UHGV virus genome: UHGV-1586438
Source of the DNA: a virus
Length of the DNA stretch: 11,824 nucleotides
Direction: 5' to 3' (one strand)
The notes under the pieces were generated by a model, which was not told the DNA's origin, did not search any database, and saw nothing but the letters and a program-made list of their open reading frames with translations. Made by a program: the position numbers and the translations under genes. This document shows positions 1 through 11,812 of this stretch, piece by piece (position 1 is the first letter of the stretch; every line of letters begins with the position of its first letter).

Positions 1-315
1 ATTACTGACATGCAGATGCGTCAGCGTGATGTTGCTGCGCTCGATGCAAAATACACGAAGGAGTTAGCTGATGCGAAAGCTGAAAATGATGTTCTGCGTG
101 ATGATGTTGCCGCTGGTCGTCGTCGGTTGCACATCAAAGCAGTCTGTCAGTCAGTGCGTGAAGCCACCACCGCCTCCGGCGTGGATAATGCAGCCTCCCC
201 CCGACTGGCAGACACCGCTGAACGGGATTATTTCACCCTCCGGGAACGACTGGTAATGATGCAGGCCCAACTTGAAGGTGCTCAGCAATACATAACCGAG
301 CAGTGTTTAAAGTAA
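1..315 (+). CDS. Rz: Phage i-spanin Rz (inner-membrane spanin), 5'-truncated by the window edge
   Basis: Frame 1 is open from base 1 (ITD MQMRQRDVAALDAKYTKELADAKAEND...) to TAA at 313-315. The translation matches my recollection of the C-terminal two thirds of phage lambda Rz almost residue for residue. It contains an embedded +1-frame Rz1-like ORF, the hallmark of Rz/Rz1 cassettes. The N-terminus lies outside the window. Confidence 0.85.
   Translation: MTDMQMRQRDVAALDAKYTKELADAKAENDVLRDDVAAGRRRLHIKAVCQSVREATTASGVDNAASPRLADTAERDYFTLRERLVMMQAQLEGAQQYITEQCLK
71..256 (+). CDS. Rz1: Phage o-spanin Rz1 (outer-membrane lipoprotein), embedded out of frame within Rz
   Basis: 61-aa ORF wholly inside Rz in the +1 frame. 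It has a signal peptide ending in a lipobox-like LVVVGC (Cys for lipidation) followed by a proline-rich stretch (PPPPPAWIMQPPPDWQTP), which is the lambda Rz1 architecture. Confidence 0.8.
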   Translation: MRKLKMMFCVMMLPLVVVGCTSKQSVSQCVKPPPPPAWIMQPPPDWQTPLNGIISPSGNDW

Positions 316-452
316 AATCTTAACTACAATATGATTCATTTTGATGATTGTTTCATAAGGAACAGTGAAGTAAGATCTAAGAGGAGTTAAATTTTATACA
401 GTATAATCATAATATTGCAGCAAGGTGGTTATAATTGAAAGAATATTTAGAT
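316..452 (+). promoter_or_regulatory. AT-rich intergenic region upstream of trkG; candidate promoter/RBS region
   Basis: 137-bp AT-rich non-coding gap between the Rz stop and the trkG ATG. TATAAT hexamers occur at 402-407 and 430-435 but neither has a convincing -35 partner, and no strong Shine-Dalgarno precedes the ATG at 453. Exact promoter position is not resolvable by eye. Confidence 0.25.
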
Positions 453-1910
453 ATGAATACATCTCATGTAAGAGTTGTTACTCATATGTGTGGGTTCCTG
501 GTTTGGCTCTATAGTCTTTCAATGTTGCCACCAATGGTTGTAGCATTGTTTTATAAAGAAAAAAGCCTGTTCGTTTTCTTTATAACTTTCGTTATATTTT
601 TTTGCATTGGTGGCGGAGCGTGGTATACAACTAAGAAATCTGGCATTCAATTACGTACCCGTGATGGGTTTATTATAATTGTAATGTTTTGGATTTTGTT
701 TTCTGTTATTAGTGCATTCCCTTTATGGATTGACTCAGAACTTAATTTAACGTTCATTGATGCTCTGTTTGAAGGGGTTTCTGGAATAACAACAACAGGA
801 GCAACTGTAATTGATGATGTTAGTTCATTACCTCGGGCAATTTTGTACTATCGGTCACAGTTAAATTTTATAGGTGGTTTAGGAGTTATTGTTCTGGCGG
901 TTGCTGTATTGCCATTATTGGGTATTGGTGGTGCAAAGCTTTATCAGTCAGAAATGCCGGGGCCATTTAAGGATGACAAACTCACTCCCCGCCTGGCCGA
1001 TACGTCACGGACACTGTGGATAACTTATTCTTTATTAGGTATTGCTTGTATTGTCTGTTATAGACTTGCAGGAATGCCTTTGTTTGATGCTATTTGTCAC
1101 GGGATTTCCACAGTTTCGCTTGGTGGTTTCTCAACTCATAGCGAGAGTATCGGATATTTTAATAACTATTTGGTTGAGCTGGTGGCTGGTTCTTTTTCCC
1201 TGCTATCGGCTTTCAACTTCACTCTTTGGTATATTGTTATTAGCAGGAAAACGATAAAACCTTTAATCAGAGATATTGAACTTCGTTTCTTTCTGTTAAT
1301 AGCCTTAGGGGTGATCATTGTTACCTCTTTCCAGGTCTGGCATATAGGTATGTATGACTTGCATGGAAGTTTTATTCATTCGTTTTTTCTTGCCAGCTCC
1401 ATGCTCACTGATAATGGTTTAGCTACGCAAGATTATGCAAGTTGGCCCACGCACACGATAGTGTTTTTGCTGTTGTCAAGTTTCTTTGGGGGATGTATAG
1501 GTTCAACTTGTGGTGGAATTAAGTCACTTCGATTTCTTATACTTTTCAAACAAAGCAAACACGAGATAAATCAGCTTTCTCATCCCAGAGCGTTGTTGAG
1601 TGTAAATGTAGGAGGGAAGATAGTTACAGATCGTGTAATGAGGTCTGTATGGAGTTTCTTTTTTCTTTATACTCTCTTCACGGTGTTTTTTATACTGGTG
1701 TTAAATGGTATGGGATATGATTTTCTTACATCATTTGCAACAGTGGCTGCATGTATTAATAATATGGGATTAGGTTTTGGGGCTACTGCATCGTCATTCG
1801 GAGTGCTTAATGACATTGCAAAATGTTTAATGTGCATAGCTATGATTCTTGGTCGCCTTGAAATTTATCCTGTTATTATATTGTTTTCAGGTTTTTTTTG
1901 GCGCTCCTAA
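453..1910 (+). CDS. trkG: TrkH/TrkG-family K+ uptake membrane protein (prophage moron)
   Basis: 485-aa polytopic membrane protein from ATG 453; the track's 435 start is a TTG six codons upstream. It shows TrkH-family signatures: repeated pore-loop glycine motifs (GVSGITTTGATV, LGGFSTH, ATQDYASWP), the EMPGPFKDDKLTPRLADTSRTLW segment, and FGGCIGSTCGGIKSLRFLILFKQ. N-terminus MNTSHVRVV and length match my recollection of E. coli K-12 TrkG, which sits immediately downstream of the Rz/Rz1 homologues in the Rac prophage. The gene is markedly more AT-rich than its neighbours. Confidence 0.9.
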   Translation: MNTSHVRVVTHMCGFLVWLYSLSMLPPMVVALFYKEKSLFVFFITFVIFFCIGGGAWYTTKKSGIQLRTRDGFIIIVMFWILFSVISAFPLWIDSELNLTFIDALFEGVSGITTTGATVIDDVSSLPRAILYYRSQLNFIGGLGVIVLAVAVLPLLGIGGAKLYQSEMPGPFKDDKLTPRLADTSRTLWITYSLLGIACIVCYRLAGMPLFDAICHGISTVSLGGFSTHSESIGYFNNYLVELVAGSFSLLSAFNFTLWYIVISRKTIKPLIRDIELRFFLLIALGVIIVTSFQVWHIGMYDLHGSFIHSFFLASSMLTDNGLATQDYASWPTHTIVFLLLSSFFGGCIGSTCGGIKSLRFLILFKQSKHEINQLSHPRALLSVNVGGKIVTDRVMRSVWSFFFLYTLFTVFFILVLNGMGYDFLTSFATVAACINNMGLGFGATASSFGVLNDIAKCLMCIAMILGRLEIYPVIILFSGFFWRS

Positions 1911-1996
1911 TATATGGCTGATTTATAATTGTGAGTTTAATATTATGTTGACTCACTCATTGATCCAATACCTAACTTTACCAGCAACCCCTCCGT

Positions 1997-2030
1997 CCCC
2001 AGTAGCACTGGCTGCTGGGGTGCGTTTTAT
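1997..2030 (+). terminator. Candidate intrinsic terminator downstream of trkG
   Basis: Hairpin CCCCAGTAGC (1997-2006) / loop ACTG / GCTGCTGGGG (2011-2020), a 10-bp stem with one G-U pair, followed by TGCGTTTTATT. The U-tract is interrupted, so efficiency is uncertain. Confidence 0.4.
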
Positions 2031-2047
2031 TCATAAAGCAAGGCTGT

Positions 2048-2839
2048 ATGAGCGAGAAATTAAAGATAGTCTATCGCCCATTACAAGAATTGTCACCGTA
2101 TGCGCACAACGCCAGGACGCACAGCCCTGAGCAGGTGGCACAACTGGTAGAAAGTATTAAGCAATTCGGCTGGACTAATCCGGTGCTGATTGACGAAAAG
2201 GGCGAAATTATTGCGGGTCACGGTCGTGTTATGGCGGCTGAAATGCTCAAAATGGATTCTGTTCCGGTCATTGTTCTGTCTGGCCTGACGGATGAGCAGA
2301 AAAAGGCGTACCGCCTGGCAGATAATCGCCTGCCGATGAATGCTGGCTGGGATGAAGATCTGTTGCGGATGGAGCTGTCGGACCTAATCAATGCTGATTT
2401 TGATGTCTCCCTGACAGGCTTCATCCCGACAGAAATTGATGAACTGTTGACGGATGTTTTGCCCGGTACAGGAAATGAGGAGGAGCCGTATACGACGAAA
2501 ATTGATACGCCTGTTTATGAGCCGTCGGGCGGTAAACCGGATATCAGTGAACTGTACGACGATACGAAAACTCAGGAGCTGATCAGCCGGATACGTTCGG
2601 CGTCCCTTGAGCCTGATATTGAGAAATTCCTCCTGTGTGCGGCAGAACGTCACACGGTGTTTAATTTCAGCAGAATTGCGGACTATTACGCTCACGCCCC
2701 CTCTGAAATTCAGTGTTTTTTCGAGGAGTCGGCGCTGGTGATCATTGATTATCAGCAGGCTATTGAAAATGGATTTGTCCGGATGACGCAGCGCATGGTG
2801 GAGATCATGCATGGTGGTGAGGAGGAGGAATATGCGTGA
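2048..2839 (+). CDS. ParB N-terminal domain (ParB/sulfiredoxin-like nuclease) protein with an uncharacterised C-terminal half
   Basis: 263-aa ORF with AAGG 5 nt upstream of the ATG. The N-terminal ~100 aa (LQELSPYAHNARTH...PVLIDEKGEIIAGHGRVMAA...VIVL) has the ParB-N/Srx pattern, including a GxGR-type motif. The acidic C-terminal part is unassigned. Position (after lysis genes, before terminase) is typical for phage ParB-like proteins. The K-12 Rac gene ynaK occupies the equivalent position but is much shorter. Confidence 0.7.
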   Translation: MSEKLKIVYRPLQELSPYAHNARTHSPEQVAQLVESIKQFGWTNPVLIDEKGEIIAGHGRVMAAEMLKMDSVPVIVLSGLTDEQKKAYRLADNRLPMNAGWDEDLLRMELSDLINADFDVSLTGFIPTEIDELLTDVLPGTGNEEEPYTTKIDTPVYEPSGGKPDISELYDDTKTQELISRIRSASLEPDIEKFLLCAAERHTVFNFSRIADYYAHAPSEIQCFFEESALVIIDYQQAIENGFVRMTQRMVEIMHGGEEEEYA

Positions 2840-3764
2840 TGATTTTTGCGCCTTTATTCTGACTCACGGGCGACCGGACAAAGTTCTGACTTACCGGACG
2901 TTGCGTCGTGCTGGCTATACCGGGAAAATTTTTATCGTTGTTGATGATGAAGATAAGACACGGAATCAGTACATGGCTGAATTTGGTGAACAGGTGCTGG
3001 TGTTTTCCAAAGCCGATATCGCCAGTCGTTTTGACGAAGCCGATAATTTCTGTGACCGCCGCTCAATTTTTTACGCCCGTAATGCCTGTTTCGACCTGGC
3101 AAAACTGGTCGGGTGTAAATACTTCATTCAGCTCGATGATGATTATCACGAGTTCCAGTTTCGGGTGGATCGCAACTATGACCAGGCCTATTTTCCGATA
3201 AGGAAACTGGATGCGATCCTTTCTGAAATGCTGGCGTACTACGAATCAATACCTGCTCTTTCCATCGCTATGTCGCAGGGCGGGGATTTTCTTGGTGACA
3301 ATGGCGGCCATGCTTCGTGGGTGAAACGCAAGGCAATGAACAGCTTTATCTGTTCGGTTGATCGACCGTTCTCATTCATGGGGCGCATTAACGAGGATGT
3401 GAATACGTACACGAATCTCGGTCGCTGTGGTGAATTGTTTATGACGATCGGTGCTGTCCAGTTAGGGCAGAAACAGACGCAGAAAAACAGCGGTGGAATG
3501 ACCGAGCTGTATCTGGATTCCGGAACCTACGTTAAAAGTTTTTACTCCGTCATGTATGCGCCGTCGTGCGTAAAAATCTCACTGATGGGTGCCAGCCATA
3601 AACGCATTCACCATCAGGTCACCTGGAACAACGCTGCAGTAAAAATCCTTCACGAAAAATACAGGAAGAAGACACCCTGCATATCAATGGGGGTGACAAA
3701 TGATTCCGTATTCGAAAGTCGAGTCTCTGGCAGCGTGCCGGATGACTGCACAACAAATCGCTGA
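2832..3764 (+). CDS. GT-A-fold glycosyltransferase-like protein (DxD motif); substrate unknown
   Basis: 310-aa ORF starting at ATG 2832, with GGAGGAGGAA immediately upstream and an 8-nt overlap (ATGCGTGA) with the ParB-like stop, implying translational coupling. Motif order resembles GT-A/GT2 enzymes: FILTHGRPD (beta1), IFIVVDDEDKT (acidic DD motif), FIQLDDDYHEF (DxD). The assignment is motif-based inference only. Confidence 0.6.
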   Translation: MRDDFCAFILTHGRPDKVLTYRTLRRAGYTGKIFIVVDDEDKTRNQYMAEFGEQVLVFSKADIASRFDEADNFCDRRSIFYARNACFDLAKLVGCKYFIQLDDDYHEFQFRVDRNYDQAYFPIRKLDAILSEMLAYYESIPALSIAMSQGGDFLGDNGGHASWVKRKAMNSFICSVDRPFSFMGRINEDVNTYTNLGRCGELFMTIGAVQLGQKQTQKNSGGMTELYLDSGTYVKSFYSVMYAPSCVKISLMGASHKRIHHQVTWNNAAVKILHEKYRKKTPCISMGVTNDSVFESRVSGSVPDDCTTNR

Positions 3765-3951
3765 CGTTCTGGATGTTGATCTGAACCGACTGAAAGAAAA
3801 TCGGGAAGCAATGACAGATTTTTATGCGGCCATCCGTAAGGGCAGAGCGAAAGGTGAAGCCGAGTTACGAGCGGCATTGTTTAAGCTTGCCAGAAAAGGG
3901 GATGCCTTTGCTCTGCGCGAACTACTCAGGGTGGATAAAAATCAGGACTAA
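3700..3951 (+). CDS. Small HTH-like protein of unknown function, immediately upstream of terS
   Basis: 83-aa ORF with GGGGGTGA 5 nt upstream of ATG 3700. It is predicted helical with a helix-turn-helix-like stretch (MTAQQIADVLDVDLNRL) and a basic C-terminus. Its stop (3949-3951) is 3 nt before the terS ATG. It overlaps the last 65 nt of the GT-like gene, so the start is uncertain; an alternative ATG lies at 3742. Confidence 0.5.
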   Translation: MIPYSKVESLAACRMTAQQIADVLDVDLNRLKENREAMTDFYAAIRKGRAKGEAELRAALFKLARKGDAFALRELLRVDKNQD

Positions 3952-3954
3952 CTG

Positions 3955-5049
3955 ATGAGCAGACCGGACTGGGGGGCGTTGCAGCAGGAGTATATTGCTG
4001 AATACACCCGCTCCGGTATATCTCCGGTGGCATGGTGTGAAGCAAGGGGACTGAATTACGCAACAGCCCGTCGTTACATCAAAAAAACTCCGAAAAATGC
4101 GCAGACAGAAATGTGCAAAACTGCGCAAAAAAGTGCGCAGAAAAAATCTGCGCAGACTGCACAAAAGCGGAACGAAAAATCTCAGGAAAAAAAGCCAGTA
4201 TTCGATGCGGGCCTGAATGAGGGCGACGCGGAGGAATTTTCGTTCTGTCCCGATGAATTCGGCATTTCTGACCAGCAGGCTAAGTTTGCGATGCTTGTTG
4301 CTCAGGGTAAAAAGCCGACAGAGGCGTACCGACTAGCCGGTTATGAGGGGCAAGGTGCGACAGCTAACAGCAACGCCAGTCGTATGCTTAGAAATGCCAG
4401 GGTTTTTCGCGCTATCAGCTACTTCCGCAATCAGTACCAGAAACGCTATACCGCAGACCTGGATTTACTAGTGAGTCAGTTGATGGCTATTGTCCTGGCC
4501 GACCCCAATCAGCTTGCACAATTTCGCCGTGTTAACTGCCGTTATTGCTGGGGCGAGAATCATCTCTACCAGTGGCGCGATATAGCAGAATTCGACAAGG
4601 CAGCGGCGCAGGCTTCCAGAGATGGCAAACCCGAACCGGAATATGGAGGCCTCGGCTTTGTTGATAACGCCATACCCAATCCGGACTGCCCGAAGTGCTG
4701 CGGTGAGGGAACGGGACAGCTTTATATGGCTGATACCACTCTGCTTGATGGGGATGCGCGGCAATTATATGCAGGGGCAAAATTCGGAAAATTCGGCGTT
4801 GAGATCCTGCTGGAGGATAAGGCTGCCGCCCGGCGTGAATTGTTGCGTTTGTTTTCTGCTGGCGGGGCTTTATGTGCAGATAAACGGCTACAGGAACTGG
4901 AAATTGAACGGCGCAGAATGGAAAACCAGAAGCTGCGCAAAGAGATCGAAACGGTGGAAGATAATGAACATCCCCAGCCTGTGGCGATCAATATTAATGT
5001 GGTTGATGCCAGAGTAAGGAGTGATGAAGATGATCTCTCCGACGCTTAA
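3955..5049 (+). CDS. Terminase small subunit (Terminase_2/P27-like core with N-terminal HTH extension)
   Basis: 364-aa ORF with AGGA 7 nt upstream. It has an N-terminal HTH-like region (GISPVAWCEARGLNYATARRYIKK), a low-complexity xAQK linker, a core resembling the Terminase_2 signature (QQAKFAMLVAQGKKPTEAYRLAGYEG...SNASRMLRNARV), paired CxxC motifs and a C-terminal coiled-coil-like segment. It lies directly upstream of, and overlaps, the terminase large subunit gene. Confidence 0.75.
   Translation: MSRPDWGALQQEYIAEYTRSGISPVAWCEARGLNYATARRYIKKTPKNAQTEMCKTAQKSAQKKSAQTAQKRNEKSQEKKPVFDAGLNEGDAEEFSFCPDEFGISDQQAKFAMLVAQGKKPTEAYRLAGYEGQGATANSNASRMLRNARVFRAISYFRNQYQKRYTADLDLLVSQLMAIVLADPNQLAQFRRVNCRYCWGENHLYQWRDIAEFDKAAAQASRDGKPEPEYGGLGFVDNAIPNPDCPKCCGEGTGQLYMADTTLLDGDARQLYAGAKFGKFGVEILLEDKAAARRELLRLFSAGGALCADKRLQELEIERRRMENQKLRKEIETVEDNEHPQPVAININVVDARVRSDEDDLSDA
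4098..4166 (+). repeat. Six phased direct repeats of TG(C/T)(G/A)CA(G/A)A inside terS; candidate pac / TerS-binding site
   Basis: Copies begin at 4098 (TGCGCAGA), 4112 (TGTGCAAA), 4122 (TGCGCAAA), 4134 (TGCGCAGA), 4149 (TGCGCAGA) and 4158 (TGCACAAA), with 9-15 bp spacing. They coincide with the low-complexity peptide TAQKSAQKKSAQTAQK. Confidence 0.5.
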
Positions 5050-6331
5050 TGTGCCTCAGGCGCGATTTCTTTCAATGCCCCATAAATTTAAAGCCTATAT
5101 TGCTGGTTTTGGCTCGGGCAAAACATGGGTTGGGTGTGGCGGCATATGCAAGGGGATTTGGGAGCATCCAGGTATAAATCAGGGATATTTTGCGCCAACG
5201 TATCCCCAAATTCGCGATATTTTTTACCCTACAGTGGAAGAAGTTGCTGCTGACTGGGGATTGAACGTAAAAATTAATGAGGGAAATAAAGAGGTTCACT
5301 TTTATTACGGACGCCAGTATCGGGGAACCACTATCTGCAGATCGATGGAGAAGCCACAAACGATCGTCGGTTTCAAAATTGGTAATGCGTTGGTGGATGA
5401 ACTGGACATTTTGCCGAAGGAAAAAGCCAGAACGGCGTGGCGCAAGATAATTGCACGTATGCGTTATAAGATTGATGGACTTCGCAACGGTATTGACGTT
5501 ACAACCACGCCGGAAGGATTCAAATTTGTCTACGAGCAGTTTGTTAAAGCCGTGCGTGAAAAAACAGAGCTGGCCTCACTGTATGGTCTGGTGCAGGCAT
5601 CTACTTTCGATAATGAAAAGAACCTGCCAGCAGATTACATTCCTTCGCTTCTTGAATCATACCCTCCAGAGCTGATTAAAGCCTATCTTCGAGGACAGTT
5701 TACTAACCTGACAAGTGGTACTGTTTACCATCAGTTTGACCGGAAACTGAATAATTGCGAAGAAGTGGAGCAGCCAGGGGAGCCGATTTATATTGGGATG
5801 GATTTTAACGTTGGAAAGATGGCGGGAATCGTCCATGTGCTGCGTTTGGGGCTTCCATGTGCGGTAACTGAAATCATCAATGCCTACGATACGCCGGATA
5901 TGATCCGCATCATTAAAGAACGCTTCTGGCTGTATGATGGGAATGATTACCGGAAAGTGAGGGAAATTTATATTTATCCAGATGCTTCCGGGGATTCCAG
6001 AAAATCAAGTAACGCAAGTACGACGGATATAGCCCAGCTTAAGCAGGCTGGTTTTAACGTTGTGGTGAACAGCTCGAACCCGCCAGTAAAAGATCGCGTT
6101 AACTCAATGAATGCAATGTTCTGCAATGCCAATGGTGAGCGTCGCTATAAAGTTAATGTGAAGCGTTGCCCGTTATATGCCGAATCTCTGGAGCAACAGG
6201 TCTGGGATGAGAAGGGGGAGCCTGATAAAAAATCTGGCAATGATCACCCGAATGATGCCGGAGGTTATTTCATCGTTAAGCAATTCCCTATTGTCAAACC
6301 GACCGGAAGAGTCACATCACTTCGGATTTAA
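5030..6331 (+). CDS. Terminase large subunit (ATPase/nuclease)
   Basis: 433-aa ORF from ATG 5030, with AAGGAG at 5016-5021 (8-nt spacing); the track's 5021 start is a GTG too close to the SD. N-terminal Walker A P-loop (AGFGSGKT), acidic Walker B-like stretch (NALVDELD), size and position between terS and portal all fit. The start overlaps the terS 3' end by 20 nt. Confidence 0.85.
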   Translation: MISPTLNVPQARFLSMPHKFKAYIAGFGSGKTWVGCGGICKGIWEHPGINQGYFAPTYPQIRDIFYPTVEEVAADWGLNVKINEGNKEVHFYYGRQYRGTTICRSMEKPQTIVGFKIGNALVDELDILPKEKARTAWRKIIARMRYKIDGLRNGIDVTTTPEGFKFVYEQFVKAVREKTELASLYGLVQASTFDNEKNLPADYIPSLLESYPPELIKAYLRGQFTNLTSGTVYHQFDRKLNNCEEVEQPGEPIYIGMDFNVGKMAGIVHVLRLGLPCAVTEIINAYDTPDMIRIIKERFWLYDGNDYRKVREIYIYPDASGDSRKSSNASTTDIAQLKQAGFNVVVNSSNPPVKDRVNSMNAMFCNANGERRYKVNVKRCPLYAESLEQQVWDEKGEPDKKSGNDHPNDAGGYFIVKQFPIVKPTGRVTSLRI

Positions 6332-6333
6332 TT

Positions 6334-7740
6334 ATGGCTGATATATCAACACCCAACCTCGACTATAACGATATGCTGGAGGCGTGGGATATTAACGACG
6401 CACTGATGGGCGGTACGCTTGAAATGCGCAGGCAGGGGGAAAATTATCTCCCAAAATGGCCTAACGAAGATGAAGACGCTTATAAAAAACGCCTGTCTGT
6501 GGCTACGCTACTTCCTGTGTATGAAGAAAGCATCAAGCAAAATATTGGGCGCATATTTGCAGAGCCGACAGTATTGAGTGAGGAAACGCCGGCAAAAATC
6601 AGGGAATATGCAGAAAATATCGACATGGAGGGGAGCCGACTGGATGTGTGGGCGCAGCAATTTTTCAGCCTCGCATTTCAGTATGGTGTGGCACATGCGC
6701 TGGTGGACTATCCACGAACGGATATGAAAGAGATTCGTACAAAAGCCGATGAAAACGCGACCGGTGGTCGTCCGTACGTTACGATGCTGAATCCACGCCA
6801 GGTTATTGGATGGAAATCGAAAGTTGAAAAAGGGAAAGTTGTTCTCACTGATTTGCGTATAAAAGAGGTCATCATTATTGATGGTGATGATTTCGGGCAG
6901 AAGAAGGTGGAGCAGATCCGCCATATTATGCCCCGTCGAGTTGAAATTTATCGACGTAGCGAAGGCACTAATGGCGAATCTGTCTGGACGCTTCATGAGT
7001 CATGGAATACCAGCCGTGATGATATTCCTCTGGTAACACTGTACACGAAGAAAACAGGATTTATGCGTGGTACACCGCCATTGCATAATCTTGGCTTGCT
7101 GAATATCAAGCACTGGCAAAGCCAGAGCGAGCAGGACAATATTCTTCATGTTACCCGCGTTCCATTGCTGGTGGCCTACGGGCTGGACAGGAATGAAGAA
7201 CTGACGGTTGGTGCATCCACCGCTACGATTTTTGAGGACAGAACAAAAAATGGCCTCGAATATGTTGAACATAGTGGCGCAGCGATAGAATCTGGCGAAA
7301 CATCACTTGAGAAGCTGGAAAATCAGATGCGTCATGCCGGCGCTAAACTTCTGCGTGCTGAAAATACATCCACCAAATCTGTTGATCAGACTAATGAAGA
7401 GCGAATGCAGGAAAACTCGCCGCTTTATACAATGGCGAACTCCCTCGAAGATGCCCTCGATAATATTCTCCAGATAATGGCGGAATGGATCGGAGAGAGT
7501 TGCGGTGGCAATGTGGATGTGCGCACTGAACTGGATGTATCTGCCCAGGTGTTTGACTCATCCTCCGCGCTGGCTGTTCAGTCATTGCGTCAGGGCGGTG
7601 ATATACGTCAGATTGATGCGGTTCGGGTGTTGCAGGCGTTGAAATTTATCGATCAGGATTCCCGTCCAGAGGAAGTGATCGATGAATTAAAAAATCAGAG
7701 TGTAATGCTGATGGAAATCAATGATGCAAACCGTGAATGA
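6334..7740 (+). CDS. Portal protein
   Basis: 468-aa ORF beginning 3 nt after the terL stop, with an acidic C-terminal region. The call is by conserved synteny (terL then portal then MuF-like protein) and size; no diagnostic motif is visible by eye. Confidence 0.7.
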   Translation: MADISTPNLDYNDMLEAWDINDALMGGTLEMRRQGENYLPKWPNEDEDAYKKRLSVATLLPVYEESIKQNIGRIFAEPTVLSEETPAKIREYAENIDMEGSRLDVWAQQFFSLAFQYGVAHALVDYPRTDMKEIRTKADENATGGRPYVTMLNPRQVIGWKSKVEKGKVVLTDLRIKEVIIIDGDDFGQKKVEQIRHIMPRRVEIYRRSEGTNGESVWTLHESWNTSRDDIPLVTLYTKKTGFMRGTPPLHNLGLLNIKHWQSQSEQDNILHVTRVPLLVAYGLDRNEELTVGASTATIFEDRTKNGLEYVEHSGAAIESGETSLEKLENQMRHAGAKLLRAENTSTKSVDQTNEERMQENSPLYTMANSLEDALDNILQIMAEWIGESCGGNVDVRTELDVSAQVFDSSSALAVQSLRQGGDIRQIDAVRVLQALKFIDQDSRPEEVIDELKNQSVMLMEINDANRE

Positions 7741-8836
7741 ACGGCTGCGTGATGAATCAATTGCTCATGCAGTCTGGATATCCCGCTATAGCACTGGCGT
7801 GGCTGCCAGAATGGTGAAAATACTGAATGACAGCGATGCGGAACTTACTGCTCGCCTGCTGATAGCACTGGACAGCCTCGATCCAGGTAATTTTACCGTT
7901 AAGCGCCTGGAGTCACTTCTGGCGAGCGTCAGAAAGGTTAACCGCACTGCTATTAACAGCATGTTTACCAGTCTCTCCGGAGAGCTGAACGAGCTGGCAA
8001 TTTATGAGGCTGGTTATCAGTTAAGTCTGTTTGATTCTATGCTACCTGATTTTGTTGCTGATGTTCACCCTCTGGTTGGTATCTCTCCTGATGCACTTTA
8101 TGCCGCTGCAATGGCGCGACCATTCCAGGGACGACTGCTCAGTGAGTGGGCCTCAGATCTTGAGGCGGATCGGCTCAGACGCATAACAAATACAGTGCGT
8201 CAGGGTTTTTTGCTGGGGGATACCAATGAGCAGATCGCAAGAAAAATTCGGGGACATGTCAGTAAGGGATTTCAGGATGGTGCATTGCAGATGAGCCGGG
8301 CTAATGCGGCCAGCATTGCAAAAACAGCGGTTGGGCATCTTGCTGCTACTGCCCGTGAGAGTTTTGCCAGCGCGAATAATGATTTGATTAAGGGTAAGCA
8401 ATGGTTATCAACGCTTGATAATCGTACTACGCCACAATGTCGAATCAGGGATCGCCTCAAATATACGCTGAATAATAAACCTGTAGGTCACAGCGTGCCT
8501 TATTTGCAGGGGCCGGGAAAAATTCATTTCTGCTGCCGCTCAACGGAAACGTTCATTCTGAAATCAGCGAAGGAACTGGGTATTGATGTTCGCGATATTT
8601 CCCCGGCTGAGCGGGCCAGCATGGATGGCGTGGTGGCCGGAGATACAACCTACAGGGAATGGTTTTTGCGTCAGCCTTACACCAGACAAAAACAGATTGT
8701 GGGGGAAACCCGAGCAAAGCTGATTCGGGATGGTGGTATGTCGCCAGATGAATTTTACACCGATAAAGGCGAATGGCTGACGCTGAAGCAGCTCCGTGAG
8801 CGTGATGCACAGGTATTCAGAAAAGCAGGGATTTAA
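7721..8836 (+). CDS. Head morphogenesis / minor head protein (SPP1 gp7 / Mu F-like)
   Basis: 371-aa ORF overlapping the portal 3' end by 20 nt; start is either ATG 7721 or 7724. Position immediately after portal and size fit MuF-family proteins. The call is synteny-based. Confidence 0.6.
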   Translation: MMQTVNERLRDESIAHAVWISRYSTGVAARMVKILNDSDAELTARLLIALDSLDPGNFTVKRLESLLASVRKVNRTAINSMFTSLSGELNELAIYEAGYQLSLFDSMLPDFVADVHPLVGISPDALYAAAMARPFQGRLLSEWASDLEADRLRRITNTVRQGFLLGDTNEQIARKIRGHVSKGFQDGALQMSRANAASIAKTAVGHLAATARESFASANNDLIKGKQWLSTLDNRTTPQCRIRDRLKYTLNNKPVGHSVPYLQGPGKIHFCCRSTETFILKSAKELGIDVRDISPAERASMDGVVAGDTTYREWFLRQPYTRQKQIVGETRAKLIRDGGMSPDEFYTDKGEWLTLKQLRERDAQVFRKAGI

Positions 8837-8855
8837 ATAAATCATTTATTACAAC

Positions 8856-8883
8856 AGGCTACCTTCGGGTGGCCTTTTTTATT
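8856..8883 (+). terminator. Intrinsic terminator between head-morphogenesis and scaffold genes
   Basis: AGGCTACC (8856-8863) / UUCG tetraloop (8864-8867) / GGTGGCCT (8868-8875), an 8-bp stem with one G-U pair, running into TTTTTTATT (8875-8883). It sits 20 nt after the stop at 8836. Confidence 0.6.
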
Positions 8884-8940
8884 GCTGCGATCCGGATGGT
8901 GAGCAGCGTAACTGTCGGAAGACTTAAACCAGGTACTAAT

Positions 8941-9705
8941 ATGAAACTGAAAACGGTCGAGATTAACGGAAAACAATACGCAGAAATTGATACTGCTGGC
9001 CTGCCAGTTTATGTGCACGACGATGGTAAAGAAATTGGCTTCGATGCACCGCTGGCGACAAAAAAAATTACAGAGCTTAATGGCGAGGCAAAAAATCATC
9101 GCCTGGCTAAAGAAGCTGCAGAGGAAAAACTGGCTAAGTTTGCCGCTATCGAAGACCCGAAGAAGGCGATCGAGGCACTGGAAATGCTGTCAAAAATCGA
9201 CCAGAAAAAGCTGCTCGATGCGGGACAGGTTGACCAGGTTAAGGCAGAAATTACGAAAAATTTTCAGCAGCAATTAGATGAAGAAAAGCAACGCTCTCAG
9301 ATGCTGGAGAAGCAGCTTTACGATTCTATGATTGGCGGTAGTTTTGCGGGTTCAAAATATATTGCCGATAAAATTGCGATCCCGGCAGATTTATTACAAG
9401 CCCGCTTCGGGCAGGCATTCAAAGTGGAAGAAGGGAGGATCGTTGCTTATGACGCTTCCGGCAACAAAATTTATTCCCGCGCGAAGCCTGGCGAACTGGC
9501 GCAGTTTGATGAGGCGCTGGAGTTCCTTGTCGAAAATTACCCTCAGAAAGACTACATCCTGAAAGCCAGTGGCAACAATGGCGGCGGCTCCCGTCCGACA
9601 CAGCATGATATTGGTCAGAAAACGATGAAACGCTCTGCTTTTGATGCACTGGATGTTGCAGGTAAGCAAAACGCATTGAAAGACGGTATCACAATCGTTG
9701 ATTAA
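8941..9705 (+). CDS. Putative scaffolding protein
   Basis: 254-aa ORF from ATG 8941 (MKLKTVEINGK...). The track's 8869 start lies inside the terminator hairpin and is rejected. The central segment is charged and helical (EAAEEKLAKFAAIEDPKKAIEALEMLSKIDQKKLL...QQQLDEEKQRSQMLEKQLY), as expected for a scaffold, and the gene is immediately upstream of the major capsid gene. The SD is weak (AGGT); an alternative start is ATG 8896. Confidence 0.5.
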   Translation: MKLKTVEINGKQYAEIDTAGLPVYVHDDGKEIGFDAPLATKKITELNGEAKNHRLAKEAAEEKLAKFAAIEDPKKAIEALEMLSKIDQKKLLDAGQVDQVKAEITKNFQQQLDEEKQRSQMLEKQLYDSMIGGSFAGSKYIADKIAIPADLLQARFGQAFKVEEGRIVAYDASGNKIYSRAKPGELAQFDEALEFLVENYPQKDYILKASGNNGGGSRPTQHDIGQKTMKRSAFDALDVAGKQNALKDGITIVD

Positions 9706-9803
9706 CACATTTGTCAGCTTCCGGATGGGAGCTGGTGTCAGGGCTGGATAGCTCATTACTCCATCTATTCACAATTACGCAAATTTTTAAGGAATATTTA
9801 ATT

Positions 9804-10943
9804 ATGGCTGGAAATACCCTGACCGGGTTGATCTCGACTATTTATACCGCCCTGGATGTTGTATCCCGTGAGCAGGTAGGTTTTATCCCTGCGGTAGCAA
9901 AAAACGCAAAAGCTGACGCCGCAGCAAAAGATCAGACGGTAACCGCGCCAGTTGCGCCTGAGGCGAAAACCGAAGATATCGTACCGGGGCCGTCAGCTCC
10001 GAATACCGGTGATCAAAATATTGGCACTGTTGATGTAAAAATTACTAAATCCAAAATGGCACCGGTTAAATGGAATGGTGAAGAACAACTGGCTCTTGGC
10101 CCTTCAGGGACTTACAACACCATTCTGGCTGATCAGTTCAAGCAGGCTTTTCGCGCCCTTGCAAACGAGGTTGAGGCTGATCTTGGTGCGTTGTATTTCG
10201 GTGCTTCCCGCGCCGTGGGAACCGCAGGGACAACGCCGTTTGGTGTTAAAGATGATCTTTCTGATGCTGCTCTGGCTCGTCAGGTTCTGGAGGATAACGG
10301 CGCACCGACAACCGATCTGCAGATGGTGCTTGGCTCCACTGCCATTGCTAATTTGCGCGGAAAACAGTCTGTATTGTTTAAAGTGAATGAATCCGGCACT
10401 GAACAGCTACTGCGTGAGGGCGTGTTGGGGCGTCTGGAGGGATTCAATATTCACAGTTCGGCAGGTGTGAAACGAGCGCCAAAGGTTGCTGCAACTGGTT
10501 ATCTCGTGAATGGAGAGAAAAAAGAAGGCGATGTTCTTATTTCCATTGATACTGGTTCGGGGAGTATTTCTGCAGGTCAGATTGTTACGTTCGCTGGTGA
10601 TCCGAATCAGTATGTTGTGGCAGCAGCGACCAGCAATCTGATTACTCTTGCAGCGCCCGGACTGCGTCAGGATCTGGCCGATGATACTGCCATCACAGTT
10701 GTTGGGGCCTTTACGGCAAATATGGCGTTTGATCGCAACGCGTTTCTGCTGGCATCCCGTACTCCGGCAATGCCGGAAGGTGGCGATAATGCTGATGATG
10801 TAATGAATGTTACGGACCCGATTTCAGGGATTACGTTCCAGATTGCACTGTATCGTCAGTATCGCCAGGTGCGCTATGAAGTTGGACTGGCATGGGGTGT
10901 TTCATCAGTGAAGCCGGCACATGGTTGTCTGATTCTTGGTTAA
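9804..10943 (+). CDS. Major capsid protein
   Basis: 379-aa ORF from ATG 9804 with a good SD (AAGGAA at 9789-9794, 9-nt spacing). The upstream in-frame extension in the track (from 9711) has no RBS. Position after the scaffold gene, size, Gly/Ala/Thr-rich composition and a strong terminator directly downstream are all typical of a capsid gene. The structural family was not determined. Confidence 0.7.
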   Translation: MAGNTLTGLISTIYTALDVVSREQVGFIPAVAKNAKADAAAKDQTVTAPVAPEAKTEDIVPGPSAPNTGDQNIGTVDVKITKSKMAPVKWNGEEQLALGPSGTYNTILADQFKQAFRALANEVEADLGALYFGASRAVGTAGTTPFGVKDDLSDAALARQVLEDNGAPTTDLQMVLGSTAIANLRGKQSVLFKVNESGTEQLLREGVLGRLEGFNIHSSAGVKRAPKVAATGYLVNGEKKEGDVLISIDTGSGSISAGQIVTFAGDPNQYVVAAATSNLITLAAPGLRQDLADDTAITVVGAFTANMAFDRNAFLLASRTPAMPEGGDNADDVMNVTDPISGITFQIALYRQYRQVRYEVGLAWGVSSVKPAHGCLILG

Positions 10944-10953
10944 ACATTCAAAC

Positions 10954-10973
10954 GGGGCTTCGGCCCCATTTTT
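10954..10973 (+). terminator. Intrinsic terminator downstream of the major capsid gene
   Basis: GGGGC (10954-10958) / UUCG tetraloop / GCCCC (10963-10967) followed by ATTTTT (10968-10973), 11 nt after the capsid stop codon. It overlaps an alternative hairpin CCCCATT/TTT/AATGGGG (10964-10980). Confidence 0.55.
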
Positions 10974-10985
10974 AATGGGGGGCAT

Positions 10986-11162
10986 ATGGCCGGATTAACT
11001 AAAGAGCAAAGAGCACAGCGTGAAGCCGCACAAAAAACGCAAATTGAGTTAGTGGTTATGGTGACCGATTATCAGATGTTTCCCGGCGCACCAACTATCG
11101 CTAATGTTCATCCTGATGAAGTTGACAACTGGAAGGCTATGGGCTGGAAAACTCAGGAGTAA
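10986..11162 (+). CDS. Hypothetical 58-aa protein (not in the supplied ORF track)
   Basis: Hand-translated: MAGLTKEQRAQREAAQKTQIELVVMVTDYQMFPGAPTIANVHPDEVDNWKAMGWKTQE, stop TAA at 11160-11162. A G-rich SD (GGGGGG at 10977-10982) lies 3 nt upstream. It exactly fills the gap between the capsid terminator and the next gene, whose own SD (AGGAG) lies in its last codons. Confidence 0.35.
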   Translation: MAGLTKEQRAQREAAQKTQIELVVMVTDYQMFPGAPTIANVHPDEVDNWKAMGWKTQE

Positions 11163-11165
11163 CAC

Positions 11166-11561
11166 ATGATCACTTACGTGACCTGTGATGACGTTGATAA
11201 TGCGTTTGGGAACGCCTGGACGAGTGAGAACGCTAAAAATAAAGCTGTTTTAATGGCTAATGCCTGGCTTAATGGCTTCAACCTGAAAATTAACCCATCC
11301 CGTATTCCGGAAGAGGTAAAACTTGCGGGAGCATATGCAGCCAGAATTGCCTCATTCGGTAAGTTGTTTCAGCAGAAAAATGATTCTGGCGTTGTTATCA
11401 GTAAAGCCGTGTCGGCTGACGGGGTCAGTGTATCGAAATCATTTTCTGAGTTGCCAGCAAACAGCACTGCATTGCTTGAACCCGATTTACAGCTTGCGAT
11501 AGCACTGCTGAAACCGTACGGACTTAGTCGCTCACAAGTCAGGGTTGTGAGGGGGGGATAA
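11166..11561 (+). CDS. Putative head-tail connector / head completion protein
   Basis: 131-aa ORF with AGGAG 6 nt upstream of the ATG. A small protein directly after the capsid gene in a head module is typically a connector or adaptor. Its stop overlaps the next ATG (ATAATGG). The call is from synteny only. Confidence 0.5.
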   Translation: MITYVTCDDVDNAFGNAWTSENAKNKAVLMANAWLNGFNLKINPSRIPEEVKLAGAYAARIASFGKLFQQKNDSGVVISKAVSADGVSVSKSFSELPANSTALLEPDLQLAIALLKPYGLSRSQVRVVRGG

Positions 11562-11812
11562 TGGGGCTTCGTGAAGAGATTCAGTCAGAGGTTGCCGCTG
11601 CTTTTGATGAGGATTTAGCGGACGCCGTGAGTGATTTTTCTGGTTCTTACGTTACGCACCGGCACTGGGATCCTGTGACGGAAACTGGCGGCGAATCCAC
11701 CGCAATCTATACCGGGCGAGGAAATTTGAGGAGAGCGGACCTTAGTACGAGAGGACCGGGTTGGACGTACCGCTGGTGCACCTGTTGTTCTGCCAAGGGC
11801 ATAGCAGGGTAG
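11561..11812 (+). CDS. ORF of uncertain validity: phage-like N-terminal ~47 codons, remainder reads through 23S rRNA-like sequence
   Basis: ATG 11561 overlaps the stop of the preceding gene by one base. The first ~47 codons (MGLREEIQSEVAAAFDEDLADAVSDFSGSYVTHRHWDPVTETGGEST) look like ordinary coding sequence. From about 11703 the DNA matches the 23S rRNA domain VI region, so the C-terminal 'protein' (NLRRADLSTRGPGWTYRWCTCCSAKGIAG) is probably a non-biological read-through. Confidence 0.25.
   Translation: MGLREEIQSEVAAAFDEDLADAVSDFSGSYVTHRHWDPVTETGGESTAIYTGRGNLRRADLSTRGPGWTYRWCTCCSAKGIAG

Follow-up and report, generated by a model that had tools for sequence, protein, structure and literature searches.

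A conserved stem-loop behind the coat gene of a Rac-like lambdoid Escherichia coli prophage and its predicted competition with a Shine-Dalgarno pairing

A sense-strand RNA hairpin (hairpin A), which has a UNCG-type loop and in most cases a tail rich in U, was found to be conserved between the coat gene and the following small open reading frame (ORF) of a Rac-like lambdoid Escherichia coli prophage and its relatives. In the best explanation, which we hold to be probable, hairpin A is the stem-loop conserved behind the major capsid gene in lambdoid phages, and a second, overlapping hairpin (hairpin B), able to pair the Shine-Dalgarno (SD) sequence of the small ORF, is most likely the accident of one base change. 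The evidence from terminator anatomy, RNA folding, comparison of relatives, and allele distribution is laid out below, together with three other readings of the same structures.

Genomic context of the hairpins

The window (the whole 11,824-nt stretch of DNA analysed) was recognized as part of a Rac-like lambdoid E. coli prophage, namely its late (structural) region, as judged from PHROG and Pfam matches and near-identical phage annotation (Table 1). Escherichia phage vB_EcoS-666R9 (accession number ON470614) was collinear with the window and displayed 99.77% identity over positions 1-11721; it carried an 'antitermination protein Q' gene plus a lysis cassette just upstream of the window-equivalent region, the Q antiterminator gene of this collinear phage being located ~2 kb upstream of the window. 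The locus was carried by 771 of 5426 complete E. coli genomes.

The coat gene matched phrog_283 (major head protein; E 1.4e-135) and Pfam PF11651 (P22_CoatProtein). The 58-aa protein (phrog_1514) encoded next to it gave no Pfam match; its ORF was kept from E. coli to Betaproteobacteria in the protein alignment, with the N-terminus MAGLTKEQ. Across the phrog_1514 family, both ends were conserved, and the middle was hypervariable and of low complexity; in Klebsiella phage 5 LV-2017 (L006:794-1132), this middle had grown to a long (EQQ)n repeat. The neighbour product of the family was labelled 'protein singed' in some RefSeq records.

Table 1. Positions of the genes and RNA elements of the window
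Feature	Position	Strand	Composition or basis
trkG	435-1910		PHROG/Pfam matches and near-identical phage annotation
ParB-like gene	between trkG and small terminase
Small terminase	3955-5049
Large terminase	5021-6331
Portal	6334-7740
Mu-F-like head morphogenesis protein	7721-8836
Sister hairpin with U-tract	8856-8881 (stem-loop 8856-8875)	+	AGGCUACC-UUCG-GGUGGCCU, then UUUUUU; terminator scan
Scaffold	ends 9705; probable start ATG 8941
Major capsid (coat), P22 coat family	9804-10943	+	stop TAA 10941-10943
Hairpin A	10954-10967	+	GGGGC (10954-10958)-UUCG-GCCCC (10963-10967); five G:C pairs, cUUCGg tetraloop
U-tract after hairpin A	10968-10973	+	AUUUUU
Hairpin B	10964-10980	+	CCCCAUU (10964-10970)-UUU-AAUGGGG (10974-10980)
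G-run, SD of 58-aa ORF	10977-10982	+	GGGGGG
58-aa ORF	10986-11162	+	phrog_1514, E 3.5e-43
Head-tail adaptor	11166-11561
Head-closure gene	11561-11812

Three gene or homology boundaries of the window call for comment. The coat start differed by annotation: (i) TTG 9711 for the longest ORF, (ii) GTG 9735 in GenBank ON470614, and (iii) ATG 9804 in RefSeq PGAP (379 aa); the coat PHROG match began at residue 34. If the coat started at 9804, a 98-nt gap (9706-9803) would lie 3' of the scaffold gene; an 8-bp hairpin CAGCUUCC-GGAU-GGGAGCUG without a U-tract was located at 9715-9734 in this scaffold-coat gap, and the fold z-score of the gap (9706-9803) was not significant. The scaffold CDS of GenBank ON470614 started at GTG 8869, inside the 8856-8875 hairpin; since the scaffold PHROG match began at residue 25 and the 254-aa product of ATG 8941 carried Pfam DUF6651, the annotated GTG 8869 is probably too far upstream. 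The homology of the near-identical phage records (n = 10) ended at 11721, inside the head-closure gene, and this end point common to all ten records suggested a mosaic joint.

Further hairpins were presented elsewhere in the late region. The trkG potassium-transporter moron had its own terminator-like hairpin (1997-2020), placed inside the late operon and before the terminase genes; trkG itself lies between lysis and terminase genes, as it does in the K-12 Rac prophage. In vB_EcoS-666R9, a third UUCG mini-hairpin (CCCAC-UUCG-GUGGG plus U5; L001:16946-16959) was located just upstream of the tape-measure gene, and a long GC hairpin without a U-tract was located after the major tail gene.

Hairpin A and its sister hairpin

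Hairpin A (-11.1 kcal/mol) started 10 nt past the coat stop and ended 18 nt before ATG 10986, being a GC-rich sense-strand hairpin near the capsid stop and ahead of the next head gene. It displayed the anatomy of an intrinsic terminator, namely a GC hairpin with a UUCG loop and the tail AUUUUUAAU directly 3', and it was included in the result of the consensus terminator scan; the AUUUUU tract had AAA (10950-10952) as a second possible partner, with a C·A mismatch to be bridged. The d'Aubenton-Carafa-type score of hairpin A was ~2.0 (marginal) versus 26.5 for the 8856 hairpin, both values being approximate only, as modern energy parameters were used. Markov simulation at the length and dinucleotide composition of the window gave an expectation of 0.15 A-type motifs per strand, such a motif being defined as five contiguous G:C pairs with a loop of 3-8 nt and a T-rich tail; hairpin A was judged non-random because of its placement in the 42-nt intergenic gap and its conservation, not because of its occurrence alone. 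An Rfam search over 8700-11300 with permissive E-values gave no match better than chance level.

The sister hairpin (-13.2 kcal/mol; d score 26.5) was located between the head-morphogenesis stop (8836) and the scaffold ATG (8941). At the equivalent position, phage HK639 carried GGUCGC-UUCG-GCGGCC-U6, i.e., a compensated stem with the same loop and tail, and this element was annotated as a terminator. With hairpin A 3' of the coat gene and the sister hairpin 5' of the scaffold gene, the scaffold-coat pair, which specifies the highest-copy products, was bracketed by the two. By position, hairpin A had the placement of an intercistronic 3' stabiliser of the REP or puf type (segmental mRNA stability): a stable hairpin on the 3' side of high-expression cistrons. 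The sister hairpin, and the match between hairpin A and the stem-loops annotated after the P22 and HK97 coat genes, had gone unremarked in the original prediction.

Conservation of hairpin A

The sequence comparison was applied to relatives collected via the 58-aa protein, so that the search was unbiased towards the hairpin. The sample was composed of six phage/E. coli records, 80 viral contigs, and 40 genomes of other species (~125 related loci), and the window plus these related loci were reduced to 50 distinct coat-to-small-ORF spacers. The minimum-free-energy (MFE) fold of the intergenic region had a hairpin in essentially all 50 spacers, from Escherichia to Nitrospinota, the exceptions being L119 (with a gap of 6 nt) and L059 and L093 (each with a damaged stem). 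The probability of the hairpin was at least 0.84 in 44 of the 50 spacers, and a UUCG loop was found in 36 of the 50.

The core GGGGC-UUCG-GCCCC was common to Escherichia, Klebsiella, Citrobacter, Serratia, Tatumella, Yersinia, Rahnella, and others, with flanks that had diverged to ~70% identity; G·U pairs were found occasionally, as were the loops UGCG, UACG, UUUG, and UUAG. Other stems were as follows: (i) GGGGG-AUUAA-CCCCC in Photorhabdus; (ii) AAGGGAGGGG-AAAU(U)-CCCCUCCCUU in two Nitrospinota genomes; (iii) GCCGGGGGC-UUCG-GCUCCCGGC in Variovorax; and (iv) 9-13-bp GC stems of unrelated sequence, several with UUCG, in beta- and alphaproteobacterial relatives.

When RNAalifold was applied to the 41 alignable sequences, hairpin A was the only consensus helix. 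Together with its flanking A-tract:U-tract pairs, it had 83% of cells paired, a level reached by none of 500 shuffles and by no slid register. The covariation in the core was thin: the alifold covariation term was -0.04, and the 14-nt core hardly varied among enterobacterial relatives. Three of the five core pairs showed one-sided changes or none, one varied only via the non-pairing L059 and L115, and one had a single both-sides change. As the core was too invariant for strong covariation, the structural case rests mainly on the distant, non-alignable relatives plus the strand-specific loop. The T-rich columns 3' of the stem, i.e., the proximal U's, were conserved in enterobacterial relatives; the U-tail was weak or absent in the high-GC relatives L114, L116, L123, L124, and L126, all of which retained the hairpin.

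Expected role of hairpin A in late transcription

Intrinsic terminators do not stop Q-modified RNA polymerase. Late transcription must cross the trkG hairpin and the stronger 8856 hairpin, and the Q-modified polymerase would therefore probably read through hairpin A as well; from what is known of lambdoid late transcription, hairpin A probably stops little lytic transcription. Hairpin A and the sister hairpin would instead act mainly after transcription, as 3' exonuclease barriers that stabilise the scaffold-coat segment of processed late mRNA, and they would double as leaky or fail-safe terminators for polymerase that is not antiterminated. Within this explanation, we would assign about half of the weight to a stabiliser or processing boundary, a quarter to partial termination, and a quarter to other roles, for example that hairpin A might shield the ribosome-binding site 3' of it from ribosomes completing translation of the coat gene. 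The conserved proximal U's of the enterobacterial relatives speak for a retained competence in termination, something for which a pure exonuclease barrier would have no use, and the loss of the U-tail in high-GC relatives in which the hairpin persists points to a function of the hairpin as such. The 8856 hairpin, acting as a terminator, would lower scaffold-coat transcription, and it fits a simple dosage model awkwardly.

It is unlikely that hairpin A is an efficient intrinsic terminator of the scaffold-coat unit, with the downstream genes expressed from minority read-through in the manner of phiX174 or of T7 T-phi. Such a terminator would account for the GC stem, the U-tract and upstream A-tract, the conservation of the proximal U's in enterobacterial relatives, and the terminator labels that curators gave to the HK97 and HK639 equivalents, and it would have a precedent in phiX174 (10.1101/2020.03.05.979765); it would nevertheless have to work with a 5-bp stem, an A as the first tail base, and a marginal score, in a late operon that has the Q antiterminator encoded upstream and must already resist the trkG hairpin and the 8856 hairpin ahead of its highest-expression genes, and it would leave high-GC relatives with a hairpin kept and a U-tract lost. 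The 'classic intrinsic terminator' of the original prediction was borne out in anatomy, but with a score of ~2 and a Q-antiterminated operon, 'classic' overstates what the hairpin probably does in lytic growth.

Hairpin B and the Shine-Dalgarno allele

Hairpin B (-9.5 kcal/mol) occupied the first four Gs of the G-run. Both hairpins, the AUUUUU tail, the G-run, and ATG 10986 were found exactly where the original prediction had placed them and with the sequences it had given; it had also claimed that the two hairpins could not form together, and they are indeed mutually exclusive because they share the CCCC strand (10964-10967). Hairpin B had further been proposed as a competitor of hairpin A, and by folding energy it was one, at ~50:50 between hairpin A and CCCC:G-run pairings: partition-function folding gave P(A) of 0.46-0.56 in contexts of 36-180 nt, and CCCC was paired to the G-run in any register with a probability of 0.44-0.54 in contexts up to 180 nt. 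In a 361-nt context, hairpin B predominated. Direct refolding from hairpin A to hairpin B by branch migration had a barrier of only 7.4 kcal/mol, and kinetic trapping in hairpin A is therefore not expected. The MFE fold of 10940-11000 was a third structure, missing from the original prediction (-16.5 kcal/mol, with -16.2 kcal/mol for the best structure containing hairpin A), in which GCCCC (10963-67) paired with GGGGC (10979-83) and GGCU (10956-59) with GGCC (10988-91), reaching the G of the start codon; this structure also needed the G-run allele, and it was lost with G10979A. Among shuffles of 10968-10985, 4.4% lowered P(A) as far as the real sequence did, a figure that overstates significance because the null destroys the G-run that any SD needs.

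The 3' strand of hairpin B (10974-10980) is transcribed after the release point at ~10973, so hairpin B cannot influence termination; it concerns read-through transcripts only, in agreement with the original prediction. A terminator/antiterminator attenuator was considered and ruled out, since hairpin B lies downstream of the termination point and was also not conserved.

Hairpin B was not in the RNAalifold consensus of the 41 alignable sequences. Its paired fraction in these sequences was 65.9% versus 64.3% in shuffled columns, and its second core C:G pair (pair 34-58) was a C·A mismatch in 36 of the 41, because the SD of the family is GGAGG. In neither conservation nor covariation was there a signal of selection on the sequestering helix of hairpin B, and the layout of coat gene, hairpin, U-tract, SD, and small ORF was kept in relatives without it. 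Competitors of the hairpin were sporadic (the window, L045, L065, and L106): they were found in 4 of 47 natural sequences (8.5%) versus 2% of spacer shuffles, a difference not read as selection because shuffling removes the G-run required by any SD. In the Klebsiella-type L065 (IMGVR_UViG_3300013979_000005; 48 nt before the small-ORF ATG), the hairpin loop plus 3' arm CUUCGGCCCC was predicted to pair with GGAGGGCUG around the SD; with a hairpin probability of only 0.02, this represented an independent competition, stronger than that in the window.

The comparison was also applied to the alleles at 10979. G10979 was derived: the ancestral SD was GGAGGG, and relatives carried GGAGG. The sister allele GGAGGG, which differed from GGGGGG only at 10979, occurred in near-identical prophages (e.g., L011). 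In silico, G10979A raised P(A) to 0.96-1.0 in every context; the mean unpaired probability of the SD in contexts up to ~100 nt was predicted at 0.36-0.51 for GGGGGG versus 0.50-0.87 for GGAGGG, and the SD:anti-SD duplex was almost unchanged (-9.3 versus -9.8 kcal/mol, respectively). The 66-nt query matched 734 E. coli genomes, and 610 of them had the GGGGGG allele as an exact 66-mer, a majority that may reflect descent rather than advantage. Hairpin B most likely arose as a side effect of a single A-to-G change in the SD, which turned GGAGGG into GGGGGG; this by chance complements the CCCC arm of hairpin A, and the resulting RNA is predicted to be bistable.

A bistable switch that evolved from hairpins A and B, with terminated RNAs ending at hairpin A and read-through RNAs folding hairpin B and masking the SD of the 58-aa ORF, is very unlikely. 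In silico, one populated conformer does pair the SD, as such a switch demands; the ~50% occupancy of B-type pairings and the low barrier, the rarity of equally competing shuffles of 10968-10985, the rank of GGGGGG as the commonest E. coli allele, the independent competitors in L045, L065, and L106, and the B-extending A10968 and U10976, both specific to the E. coli clade, would all suit it. Against it, hairpin B was absent from the consensus, did no better than shuffled columns, and was broken by the C·A mismatch in 36 of the 41 aligned sequences; the sister allele abolished it in near-identical prophages; P22, HK639, and distant relatives had the same layout and hairpin A without it; and the reversed polarity of the lambda hairpin makes such a pairing impossible there. 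The effect of hairpin B on SD accessibility is predicted to be at most ~twofold. The proposed throttling of downstream translation was upheld in its direction, a lower predicted SD accessibility, but only within that twofold limit, and the idea that hairpin B helps to set the capsid-to-accessory protein ratio as an evolved device was not supported, given a helix that is not conserved, is absent from the consensus, and is lost in the sister allele.

A narrower version, confined to the E. coli Rac-like prophage lineage, supposes that G10979 made the RNA two-state and that the SD-masking state was then selected, lowering the 58-aa protein relative to the coat; it takes GGGGGG being the majority allele as the sign of selection, and we give it little credence. 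If it were true, the GGGGGG/GGAGGG polymorphism would be a segregating one-base tuner of the dose of a virion-assembly protein.

Discussion

That the palindrome works at the DNA level rather than as RNA (for instance as a site bound by a protein, or as a mark of recombination or of a mosaic boundary) is extremely improbable: the 14-mer is almost invariant in enterobacterial phages with flanks at ~70% identity, and mosaic or deletion joints lie nearby in some genomes, but a UUCG, UGCG, or UACG loop stands on the sense strand in most relatives although a DNA palindrome would not constrain its loop, distant relatives keep a hairpin that is unrelated in sequence, the element is always found between genes in transcribed DNA and has its T-rich tail on the sense strand alone, and the single joint examined (H84) was a large deletion in a decayed prophage. 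This E. coli prophage, in which homology ends exactly at the ATG, was also considered as a clue to the gene that the hairpin belongs to and was set aside as uninformative, being decayed and carrying large deletions.

The post-capsid stem-loop was noted by phage curators more than 20 years ago and never explained. The question that it raises, whether post-capsid hairpins are leaky terminators or stability boundaries in antiterminated late operons, has become somewhat more testable with the retention of the hairpin in distant hosts with different stems, the usual UNCG loop, and the second, bracketing hairpin of this phage group. The natural GGGGGG/GGAGGG pair offers a ready one-base comparison of local structure against translation of the next gene.

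Leaky terminators and stem-loops at the borders of structural genes are known from several phages. To our knowledge, neither phiX174 nor T7 uses Q-type antitermination on host RNA polymerase. Termination is thus directly effective in those two phages, whereas read-through is expected here. In phiX174, the leaky Rho-independent terminators TJ, TF, TG, and TH step down the transcripts after structural genes (bioRxiv 10.1101/2020.03.05.979765); in T7, a leaky terminator after the capsid gene likewise grades the transcript level (cited in the LUZ7 paper, PMC9163698); and in SPP1, late gene clusters are bounded by stem-loops (PMC6316719). A literature search for direct experimental studies of lambdoid post-capsid terminators or stem-loops, of HK639, or of prophages by Term-seq returned none.

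The lambda cIII mRNA exists as two mutually exclusive conformers in equilibrium, one of which pairs the SD, and both conformers are conserved and have been shown to be functional. The RNA of the window resembles it in having exclusive conformers, one of them pairing the SD, but its SD-masking conformer lacks such conservation and depends for its formation on one derived base.

Closer counterparts of hairpin A were found in lambdoid phages with other capsid families: (i) HK97 had a 'terminator, putative' directly after the major head gene gp5, with a further two bordering the major tail gene; (ii) HK639, which was 70% identical to the window, had annotated terminators before the scaffold gene and around the major tail gene; and (iii) lambda had UGGCCC-UUCG-GGGCCA between E and FI. 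Like the window, all three had GC-rich, U-tailed hairpins directly 3' of the major capsid gene, in a late operon subject to antitermination, and lambda shared the UUCG loop as well. They differed from the window in their stems and in their capsids, which were HK97-fold variants not alignable in sequence. The arm polarity of the lambda hairpin was reversed (G-rich 3' arm), and it therefore cannot pair with the SD.

The closest counterpart was in P22, whose RefSeq record (NC_002371) had a stem_loop (6102-6119) annotated between coat gene 5, from which six bases separate it, and orf69, with the note 'putative; similar in location to stem-loops in phage HK97 and phage lambda'. Its sequence was GGGGC-UGCG-GCCCC-UUUCUUU (UUUCUUUAUGGAG...ATG); a small ORF and then the head-tail adaptor came next. 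P22 and the window shared a coat of the P22 family, whose Pfam entry is defined by the P22 coat protein, a hairpin a few bases past its stop, a small ORF, and then the head-tail adaptor; the two stems were identical, but P22 had a UGCG rather than a UUCG loop, and its small ORF was unrelated in sequence. The SD of P22 was GGAG, so no B-type helix could form there. By stem sequence and placement, the P22 post-coat stem-loop is regarded as the homologue of hairpin A, and hairpin A is, on the same grounds, regarded as a further case of the already annotated post-capsid stem-loop of lambdoid phages.
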